From positions 32,001 through 96,000 of IMG/VR virus record IMGVR_UViG_3300028392_000030: a stretch of 64,000 nucleotides of DNA. One strand, written 5' to 3'. A program made the translations under genes and the position numbers. The DNA is from a virus. Positions 16,873-18,570 of this stretch are shown piece by piece. The notes beneath the pieces are model-generated. The model was not told where the DNA came from. It did no database searches and saw nothing but the letters and a program-made list of their open reading frames with translations. Each line of letters opens with the position of its first letter. The first letter of the stretch is position 1.

Positions 16873-17139
16873 ATGTCAAAAGTCGATACTACTTTTCTCT
16901 TTCCTGCTACGGCAGAAAGCGTAATTACATGGGGCAGATCATTGACTGATACTGAATCAGCATTAGTCCAGTCCAAAAAAGGTGCAATGTTTGCGGCTGG
17001 AAATTTTGGGTCTTTTCCAGCCACAGTCAATGGCGTCAGCACATTTGCATGGGTGTCGTCGGATGCAGCGAACGAATTTGTAGCATTTTGCAATACGTTC
17101 ACTCCGCCGCCGGAATCGGCCGTAGTTAATAGTCTGTAA
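16873..17139 (+). CDS. Hypothetical protein (paralog of 16556..16840)
   Basis: AAGGAG SD; shared motifs with the upstream ORF. Confidence 0.65.
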   Translation: MSKVDTTFLFPATAESVITWGRSLTDTESALVQSKKGAMFAAGNFGSFPATVNGVSTFAWVSSDAANEFVAFCNTFTPPPESAVVNSL

Positions 17140-17140
17140 A

Positions 17141-17214
17141 GAATTGTTGTAATCCCTTCCGAGTGAAGGCATTCTGGACGGGGGTGTTAGACCCTGCGGA
17201 CCATAAATCCACCA
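17141..17214 (+). pseudogene. Disrupted relic of a permuted-tmRNA acceptor piece
   Basis: ATTGTTGTAA...TTCTGGACGGGGGT parallels ATTGCTGTAA...TTCTGGACCCGGGT at 18131-18186; the TTCGA T-loop is replaced by the end of the HNH ORF. Confidence 0.6.
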
Positions 17215-17694: not shown

Positions 17695-17723
17695 TTGACA
17701 AGATTCGACAACTATGCTATACT
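17695..17723 (+). promoter_or_regulatory. Sigma70-type promoter
   Basis: TTGACA-N17-TATACT. Confidence 0.7.
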
Positions 17724-17798: not shown

Positions 17799-18122
17799 AT
17801 GGCAAGAAAACACCTATATACTTGGAACAATGGCGAAGACAAAGAGCTGTTTGAGTCTTTGAAACTGATATTAGGGCCCGTGAAAAATTGGAAAGGACAA
17901 ACTTATAAAAGAACTCTTTCGTTTTTAGCGGAAACCAAATATGGAAATTCTAACACAGACATTGGAGCACTTGAAATGAGAGTTGCTTTCTTAACTAGTA
18001 AACAAAAGGCATCTTATTATAGAACTCGTGGCAGAGAAAATGTATTCAAACAAGTTGTAGTTGGTGCTGTGGCGTCGGGTGTAGCAAGTTATAAGGACCT
18101 AGCGCCAAGATTAAATGGGTAA
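17799..18122 (+). CDS. Hypothetical protein
   Basis: ORF track; AAGGA SD. Confidence 0.65.
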   Translation: MARKHLYTWNNGEDKELFESLKLILGPVKNWKGQTYKRTLSFLAETKYGNSNTDIGALEMRVAFLTSKQKASYYRTRGRENVFKQVVVGAVASGVASYKDLAPRLNG

Positions 18123-18127
18123 ATAAA

Positions 18128-18452
18128 AGTATTGCTGTAAAGCCCGTAAGGGAAGAAGCAAAGAGAAAAGTGTTCTGGACCCGGGTTCGACTCCCGGCAT
18201 CTCCACCTAAGTGTATGGGGTATATTTAGGTGGGGATGACTTGGTTTTCGACAGGGCAAAGAGTAACAGAGTGGACAGCACGGTAGGCGATGACCGTAAA
18301 TCAAGCAAATCAAGTAAATGCAAAAGCATCTACAGGCGAAGTAACTGTTTCTGGTAAGAACGTCAAGTTCTCTGCTCGCACAGTGAAAGCCGAATCTTTC
18401 GCAGTTTAATCGCCGCGATAGGGCAGGAAATGCCTCGTAACAGAAACTACCA
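18128..18452 (+). ncRNA. ssrA: Circularly permuted (two-piece) tmRNA
   Basis: T-arm CCGGG-TTCGACT-CCCGG and acceptor strand CATCTCC-A (18198-18205) precede GGGGATG (18232-38), giving G3:U70; intervening hairpin 18205-18231; GAC..GGTTTTCGACAGGG D-loop mimic; tag ORF; boundaries approximate. Confidence 0.9.
18320..18409 (+). other. tmRNA tag reading frame AKASTGEVTVSGKNVKFSARTVKAESFAV*
   Basis: Resume GCA follows TAAAT, as in typical tmRNAs; open for 29 codons to TAA. Confidence 0.75.
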
Positions 18453-18454
18453 GA

Positions 18455-18477
18455 ACCCGCTTCGGCGGGTCTCTTTT
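18455..18477 (+). terminator. Rho-independent terminator after tmRNA
   Basis: ACCCGC-TTCG-GCGGGT followed by CTCTTTT. Confidence 0.8.
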
Positions 18478-18570
18478 CGACTGTTTGAGTGGATAAAAAT
18501 TACTGTGTATCAGTAAAACCACTAAATAATATGTTGGGCACACGTCCACATTCTTATAAGGAAAAACTAA

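Follow-up and report, generated by a model that had tools for sequence, protein, structure and literature searches.

Does a two-piece (permuted) transfer-messenger RNA (tmRNA) gene on phage DNA, with a tag of 29 residues that does not end in Ala-Ala, make a working RNA, and what would become of the proteins that receive the tag? The gene lies in a stretch of 64,000 nucleotides (the window) corresponding to bases 32001–96000 of the 197,025-bp IMG/VR virus record IMGVR_UViG_3300028392_000030, which is rated 57% complete and whose source is an uncultured giant lake phage. The explanation that we consider probable, taken as a whole, is that the locus encodes a working phage copy of the betaproteobacterial-type two-piece tmRNA, that its Ala-Val-ending (AV) tag is likely a Clp degron, and that the allele is a chimera. 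For comparison, the commonest length of a tmRNA tag is 10 residues (PMC11915505).

The original prediction, made from the letters alone, had placed a permuted tmRNA on phage DNA, and two independent programs call the gene. ARAGORN finds 14 transfer RNA (tRNA) genes and one permuted tmRNA in the window, the latter at 18116–18500 on the plus strand with the tag AKASTGEVTVSGKNVKFSARTVKAESFAV followed by a stop. Rfam's covariance-model search (cmscan), the check that had been suggested, matches the same locus with two permuted models, both above their gathering scores: tmRNA_permuted (RF04321; 98.5 bits against 47, E 6e-18, 18152–18409) and beta_tmRNA (RF01850; 89.1 bits against 84), which is the best clan member. 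This is the single permuted-tmRNA match of Rfam on the entire contig. The G3:U70 pair and the CCT in place of an encoded CCA can be read directly from the sequence (G18234:U18202; CC-T at 18206–18208), as had been reported. The intervening hairpin is present as well; its length needs correcting from 11 bp, as 12 pairs are counted past the 7-bp acceptor stem, and acceptor stem and intervening segment together form one 19-pair hairpin.

The fold was examined for covariation in eight helices across 13 distinct relatives, with the pairing partners slid by 1–3 columns as a control. In the proposed helices 97% of the cells are paired, versus 40–47% in the slid controls, and both sides have changed in 24 of 49 pairs, a result reached by none of 500 shuffles. 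G3:U70 is invariant among these relatives, positions 4–7 of the acceptor stem occur in seven versions, and the T stem also covaries. The outer P2 helix (helix 1; TTGCTG/CAGCA) is compensated, a U-A pair having changed to C-G in the window and to A-U in the relative L120, and the inner P2 helix is compensated likewise. The covariation test further supports one hairpin stem of the pseudoknot 1 (PK1) region (helix 6). One pair of the hairpin 3' of the tag frame (helix 7, 18421–18435) is C-G in six distinct sequences and U-A in six, and the terminator stem (helix 8) covaries. The acceptor piece, the coding piece and the layout of acceptor stem and P2 are thus confirmed, far beyond chance, as those of a genuine permuted tmRNA. 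Two other helices were rejected: (i) an outer helix proposed by RNAalifold (columns 70–74 with 498–502), which is broken by the U-to-C change of the window that the Rfam-type P2 pairing compensates, and (ii) a predicted helix between codons 9–10 and the last two codons of the tag, whose pairing is broken by variants in L248 and L258/L262 that keep the amino acids.

The tag frame is conserved as a peptide. Its resume codon, GCA at 18320, lines up with the Rfam consensus UAAAUGCA. Among the matches listed there are 25 distinct AV-family coding sequences, and the frame is open in all 25. The six indels that it has undergone are each a multiple of three, two offsetting 6-nt changes hold the length at 29 residues (SARTVKAE versus RTLAAKGQ), one serine is encoded by TCT/TCA in some sequences and by AGT in others, and the final two codons are GCA followed by GTT or GTC. 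The ratio of nonsynonymous to synonymous differences (pN/pS) is 0.59 in this frame (0.53 from codon 11 on), as against 0.97 and 1.12 in the two other frames, in which the 25 sequences carry 51 and 19 stops. A long tag without an Ala-Ala end, as first proposed, is therefore upheld. Resumption in another frame to give a short Ala-Ala-ending tag had been named as the outcome that would overturn it; no such frame was found, since the other two frames of the window read QKHLQAK and KSIYRRSNCFW before their stops, neither ending in Ala-Ala, and both carry stops in relatives. The window tag ends S-F-A-V, non-polar with valine last, and lacks the ALAA-type family ending, which is a usual but not strictly defining feature of tmRNAs (the Mycoplasma tag ends AFA). 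The idea that the long frame substitutes for missing pseudoknots was discarded: the distance from resume codon to 3' end is about 160–180 nt, versus about 120–130 nt in short-tag relatives, and a two-piece RNA forms no closed ring.

The same kind of tag recurs in related phages. In the first search, a degenerate pattern for tag residues 1–10 returned 16 viral contigs, in 15 of which ARAGORN calls a permuted tmRNA; the tags of these 15 have 28–29 residues, each with S-[F/L]-A-V at its end. A second scan of viral contigs left the tag free, being anchored outside it on the 3' side of PK1 and GUAAAUGC, and returned at least 93 loci with tmRNA-like tags, at least 63 of them distinct, with exact agreement from ARAGORN on at least 72 loci. 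At least 47 of the distinct tags have 20 residues or more; at least 41 end in AA, at least 19 in AV, at least two in LA and at least one in FA. The AV sub-family occupies at least 30 loci (at least 19 variants, at least 25 loci called by ARAGORN), with lengths of 27–31 residues, starts of AKAST, ANANT, ANAST, AKANT or ATAST, and an [F/L]-A-V end in every tag listed. Long tags are common in the wider phage lineage and, among the matches listed, most still end in Ala-Ala. Other long-tag families of this lineage, with 23–33 residues and an Ala-Ala end, include ANADTFDFSAMSFTGNTVRGAANESRFALAA, ANASTFEYFTVEGFTADNGLVAA and ANANTFKFFEVPAFVASAANAERFELAA (L163–L272, among the matches listed), where a few long tags end VLA, QLA or AFA. 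Many long tags resemble strand-turn-strand peptides. A search for enrichment of phage proteins ending [F/L]AV found none.

The gene belongs to the phage. The contig aligns collinearly with G001, a viral genome of 344,244 bp that has direct terminal repeats, is rated 100% complete and carries a tmRNA with the tag AKASTGEVTVSGKSVKFSARTAKASLAV; positions 1–58 kb of the contig correspond to 275–340 kb of G001, and 66–196 kb to 4–125 kb. The tmRNA occupies the same site between the same flanking genes in at least 10 relatives. Collinearity with a complete terminal-repeat phage genome, together with this shared site, identifies a phage gene and rules out contaminating host DNA or a prophage attachment site. 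In cells, a degenerate pattern for the tag motif TGEVTVS[GA]K, run against one genome for each of 185,579 bacterial and archaeal species, gave 97 matches and no tmRNA, which argues that the tag is private to phages. A generic T-arm pattern returned 16 viral loci and a generic permuted-tmRNA pattern 101; almost all loci from both have AA-ending tags, and close kinship to the window gene appears solely through the tRNA-like domain of two contigs, L008 and L011. Against GenBank phages there was no match to the tmRNA gene by blastn (50,697 records) or to 12 kb of the window by megablast, and a search with the exact P2-region pattern gave zero matches.

From this anatomy and from established tmRNA biology, a route to tagging can be proposed. 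One precursor transcript, probably from the promoter at 17695 and including ORF107, would end at the terminator at 18455–18477. Host tRNA-processing enzymes would excise the 24-nt hairpin, the host CCA-adding enzyme would supply the last A of CCA, and host alanyl-tRNA synthetase would charge the RNA by way of G3:U70. Host SmpB and elongation factor Tu (EF-Tu) would then bring it to ribosomes that have stalled on broken mRNAs, such mRNAs being likely plentiful in infection, and translation would resume at GCA 18320, so that the charged alanine and 29 encoded residues, 30 in all, are appended. The steps are those of the known pathway: precursor processing, G3:U70 alanylation, delivery by SmpB and EF-Tu, resumption in the tag frame and release at its stop, after which the tagged product is degraded through its non-polar C-terminus by ClpXP, ClpAP and other proteases (PMC3985003). 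SmpB is absent from this contig, from the complete relative and from four partial relatives, so the host copy must be used; a CCA-adding enzyme was not found in the phage genomes searched for it.

What, then, would read the tag? Conservation of the peptide to its last residue argues that something reads it, and a non-polar end points to an unfoldase. The [F/L]-A-V end is most likely still a C-terminal degradation signal for Clp-type unfoldases. In E. coli the half-life of green fluorescent protein is 40 min with LAA, 60 with AAV, 110 with ASV and about 225 untagged (Andersen 1998, as cited in PMC10832536), and valine, though not excluded, is depleted as the final residue of ClpXP degrons (PMC10862746). 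Going by E. coli, the Ala-Val signal would be a weaker one for host ClpX, and the phage clade supplies ClpX, ClpP, ClpA and ClpS of its own. G001 (the contig of locus L122) encodes ClpX, ClpS, ClpP and ClpA at four separate sites, at about 183, 187, 207 and 270 kb (Table 1). Its ClpP is of the cellular type (Pfam 270 bits; NCBIfam 312.6 against a cut-off of 249), the prohead-protease model scoring just 103 bits. Its ClpX (510 bits against a cut-off of 359) retains the zinc finger, the GYVG pore loop and the IGF ClpP-docking loop; ClpA has 759 residues and scores 810 bits with its best model, and ClpS scores 85 bits. All four lie at 182–271 kb of G001, within a stretch (125–274 kb) that has no match on this contig, so nothing can be read from their absence here. 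ClpA is also found on a partial AV-tag relative, G002. Neither this contig nor the complete relative encodes Lon, as judged by the Lon_C domain, and no Tsp-type peptidase or SspB was found in the phage genomes searched. In G001 a radical SAM gene lies directly 3' of ClpP.

Several points weigh against this explanation. E. coli ClpXP disfavours valine as the last residue. The contig itself carries none of the Clp genes, and that this phage has them is inferred from its collinearity with a single complete relative. A relative with an ALAA tag, G006, has ClpA too, so that Clp genes and an Ala-Val ending do not go hand in hand. A pN/pS of 0.59 is moderate constraint only, and the tag region is more conserved in nucleotides than the tRNA-like domain, so that some of the constraint may act on the RNA.

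The phage Clp proteins invite a stronger claim, that a lineage of giant aquatic phages runs an end-to-end disposal line in which a private 30-residue Ala-Val tag is tuned to the phage's own ClpX or ClpA (with ClpS) and ClpP, which would prefer it over host tags, and is poorly read by host ClpXP/SspB. Products of stalled ribosomes would be disposed of in parallel, with no queue behind host substrates, or destroyed at a set time. A tag found in phages only and conserved to its last residue fits such a pair, as does a complete relative with the full Clp set and neither SspB nor Lon; G001 ClpX, moreover, has RKQ at the site of the tag-reading RKH loop in the aligned solved ClpX chain 9ndj, and the extended AFA-ending tag of Mycoplasma, which co-evolved with Lon, is a precedent (PMC3985003). 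However, the tag-reading loops of ClpX are available from three tmRNA-bearing phages only, with SRKQ beside an AV tag, RKKH beside an AFA tag and NKKH beside an ALAA tag, too few to establish a correlation; the phage ClpX is ordinary in its pore-1 and pore-2 loops, and ClpA occurs in ALAA-tag relatives too. We regard both the general disposal line and the private tag-protease pair within it as unlikely; attractive as tuning to the phage's own Clp proteins is, the support for it is their co-occurrence with the tag. If true, they would amount to a natural orthogonal tag-protease pair borne by a virus.

Somewhat more doubtful still is the notion, part of the original prediction, that recycling the ribosome suffices and that Ala-Val is a deliberately weak degron, the tagged proteins being spared or slowly degraded. 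Valine at the last position does weaken E. coli degrons. Huang et al. reportedly found in 2000 that some bacteria need charged tmRNA, not proteolysis, to survive, which would suit a role in rescue without prompt destruction. An unimportant peptide, however, should drift in sequence, in length and in its last three residues, and no such drift is seen; the end also stays non-polar, as in every known degradation tag. Since Val-ending ssrA variants are degraded in E. coli, if more slowly, and the non-polar end is conserved, our analysis favours a degron that is graded or re-tuned, rather than a protein-sparing tag. As originally suggested, the tag might also reroute proteins or append a functional peptide; that it would hijack host quality control is plausible.

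The allele in the window draws on two sources. Upstream of the live gene lies a decayed acceptor piece, alignable over its full length, in which the 5' P2 strand and the small hairpin are intact and TCCACCA is still present at 17208–17214, but the T loop reads GTTAGA instead of TTCGAnT and 7 nt have been inserted. Over positions 17137–17185 it matches the 5' part of the acceptor piece that is live in the relative L126 at 94% identity, and other relatives at 84–88%. In L126-type relatives the tmRNA gene is contiguous, whereas in the window about 1 kb of other DNA intervenes before similarity to L126 returns from 18231. The intervening DNA includes an HNH endonuclease gene (Pfam HNH 21.2 bits, just below the cut-off of 21.4, with the motif HHIVPKYLGGTDDPSNLVDLTVDQHAEAH visible in its translation) and ORF107, of which copies 88% identical occur on the viral contigs L117 and L118 with unrelated flanks and no adjoining tmRNA. 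A promoter candidate at 17695–17723 could drive ORF107 and the tmRNA. The jumbo-phage contigs L008 and L011, whose tmRNA has the ALAA-ending tag ANAANDEVFALAA, carry a tRNA-like domain to which the live acceptor piece, together with the ~50 nt that open the coding piece (to 18279), is 98% identical; from about 18280 on, the lineage's own PK1 and tag sequence follows. HNH-like ORFs (55% identity over 40 aa) also adjoin the tmRNA genes of L008 and L011. On this comparison of sequences the window allele is a chimera: an HNH cassette brought in a foreign tRNA-like domain in place of the original, while the tag module is still that of the lineage itself. As both strands of every shared helix were imported together, pairing is intact. 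Family-wide, the tag module varies less than the tRNA-like domain, in keeping with repeated exchange of modules. The cassette in the window and the HNH-like ORFs of L008 and L011 suggest that homing endonucleases may shuffle tmRNA modules between phages. Group I introns, which target the T loop of tmRNA, offer a likeness to such HNH-driven shuffling. That the cassette instead broke the tmRNA and left a dead or dying gene, as the decayed acceptor piece and endonuclease gene directly upstream and the lack of a private promoter right before the live acceptor piece might suggest, is very improbable, because the new acceptor piece arrived along with the 5' coding piece, with perfect pairing in all three helices that they share, the tag is letter for letter that of the uninterrupted relative L126, and the Rfam score is twice the threshold.

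Table 1. Features of the tmRNA locus (positions in the window) and Clp genes of the complete relative G001 (positions in the named loci).
Feature	Position	Strand	Basis or remark
Decayed original acceptor piece	17137–17214	+	Alignment to relatives; not called by ARAGORN or Rfam
HNH endonuclease gene, 174 aa	17187–17711	−	Last codons overlap decayed acceptor piece
Sigma-70-type promoter candidate, TTGACA, 17 nt, TG-TATACT	17695–17723	+	Consensus scan, 11/12 matches
ORF107, part of inserted cassette	17799–18122	+	No Pfam or NCBIfam family
Live acceptor piece	18132–18207	+	ARAGORN, Rfam, direct reading; covariation
Outer P2 strand TTGCTGT	18132–18138	+	Direct reading
Small hairpin in acceptor piece	18143–18152	+	Direct reading
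Inner P2 strand TGTTCTG	18171–18177	+	Direct reading
T arm	18181–18197	+	Direct reading
Acceptor 3' strand CATCTCC	18198–18204	+	Pairs with GGGGATG 18232–18238
Discriminator A, then CC	18205, 18206–18207	+	CCA incompletely encoded
Intervening segment, 24 nt	18208–18231	+	T at position of the A of CCA; predicted removed on maturation
Coding piece, 5' part	18232–18319	+	Direct reading, Rfam, covariation
Acceptor 5' strand GGGGATG	18232–18238	+	G3 = 18234 pairs with U70 = 18202
P2 3' strands CAGGGCA, ACAGCA	18252–18258, 18275–18280	+	P2 partners
PK1-region hairpin	18281–18296	+	Helix 6; then resume context GUAAAU
Tag reading frame AKASTGEVTVSGKNVKFSARTVKAESFAV, 29 codons and stop TAA (18407–18409)	18320–18409	+	ARAGORN, Rfam
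Hairpin 3' of tag frame, conserved	18421–18435	+	Helix 7
Intrinsic terminator ACCCGC-TTCG-GCGGGT and T run	18455–18477	+	Closes coding piece; helix 8 covaries
ClpX of G001	L139:1201–2397		
ClpS of G001	L373		
ClpP of G001	L136:1408–2052		
ClpA of G001	L137:88–2367		

Judged from its sequence, the architecture is of the betaproteobacterial type. The two-piece tmRNA of betaproteobacteria (RF01850; Sharkady and Williams 2004, as cited in PMC9004378 and PMC3985003) has the same permuted order, tRNA-like domain, two-part P2, PK1-region hairpin and UAAAUGC resume context, and a Rhodocyclaceae genome shows this permuted layout with an ordinary tag, ANDERFALAA. The bacterial tags seen in this analysis, however, have 10 residues and end ALAA, whereas the phage tag has 29 and ends FAV, and the phage gene lies on a genome without SmpB. 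Two-piece tmRNAs are also known from phages, namely the Methylophilales phage Melnitz and pelagimyophages, with 53 ARAGORN calls among 18,146 phage genomes (Buchholz et al. 2022, PMC9004378); these are 53 among 402 tmRNA-bearing phages, nearly all aquatic (PMC9004378). Like Melnitz, the present phage combines a complete permuted ssrA with a large aquatic myophage-like genome and adjoining tRNA genes, and the roles proposed for the Melnitz gene are the same, to keep hijacked translation machinery running or to tag proteins for recycling (PMC9004378). Melnitz has an ssrA of the alphaproteobacterial type, preceded by a glutamine riboswitch, whereas the window gene is a beta_tmRNA, and no riboswitch family reaches the Rfam threshold in the window. 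A conserved long tag with a non-Ala-Ala end is not described in that study (PMC9004378).

Long tags without an ALAA end have a parallel in the extended tag of Mycoplasma, which with Lon is the one documented joint change of tag and protease (PMC3985003). Mycoplasma, however, lacks ClpXP, ClpAP and Tsp and uses Lon, whereas the phage clade has ClpX, ClpA, ClpP and ClpS and no Lon, and the two tags share no sequence similarity. The engineered ssrA variants AAV and ASV likewise end in valine after a small residue (Andersen et al. 1998, as cited in PMC10832536), although, as cited there, these are 11-residue laboratory tags read in E. coli. Other large phages have imported host translation-rescue and proteolysis parts in the same way: Agrobacterium phage Atu_ph07 encodes ClpX, ClpA, ClpS and ClpP (PMC6102473), Bacillus phage G encodes a tmRNA, phage tmRNAs having been listed since 2014 (PMC4131195), and also carries ClpX, and a 2020 study reported tmRNA together with SmpB in huge phages (PMC7162821). 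Unlike the SmpB-bearing phages of the last study, the present clade has no SmpB that could be found. No link between a tag sequence and a phage's own Clp proteins was found in this giant-phage literature (PMC6102473, PMC4131195, PMC7162821), nor did the phage tmRNA literature yield any account of a lineage confined to phages whose long tags are conserved and, in one branch, end in Ala-Val. Phage two-piece tmRNAs and the Clp suites of jumbo phages are thus already known, and the novelty is the conserved, phage-only long-tag lineage with its Ala-Val branch.

A phage tmRNA is usually counted as just another borrowed gene for translation; here, besides the rescue part, the message part is conserved and private to phages. 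Distinct long-tag families among related phages, most Ala-Ala and one Ala-Val, would mean that it matters to the phage how truncated proteins are marked or what becomes of them. A clade with its own ClpX, ClpA, ClpP and ClpS may serve as a natural system for the co-evolution of tag and reader, and synthetic biology might draw new orthogonal degrons from it, as it did from Mycoplasma with its tag and Lon. The chimeric allele, for its part, would cast homing-endonuclease cassettes as shufflers of tmRNA modules between phages.

Automated counts of phage tmRNAs are underestimates, since ARAGORN misses at least five AV-family loci and further long-tag loci despite an evident tag frame (for example L125, L200, L221, L231 and L258); in L125, which was checked, a contiguous acceptor piece is present. 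At two other loci, L215 and L256, the same resume context is followed by one Ala codon and a stop, with no ARAGORN call. If these are real tmRNAs, the appended tag would be Ala-Ala alone, and a likeness can be drawn to the 2-residue tmRNA tags that have been reported (PMC11915505).

The pieces of the RNA also vary among relatives. At the last position of CCA, 9 of 16 relatives have A, six have G and one has T. The intervening segment ranges from 24 nt in the window to about 150 nt in L127 (alignment A2, columns 153–260); its sequence is unrelated between relatives, and the stem at its base covaries. In L120, L121 and L133 the T arm GGGGGCGGAGCCC replaces the usual GGGTTCGAnTCCC, leaving a T loop without the conserved TTCGA (alignment A2, columns 119–135), and all three are still called as tmRNAs by ARAGORN.

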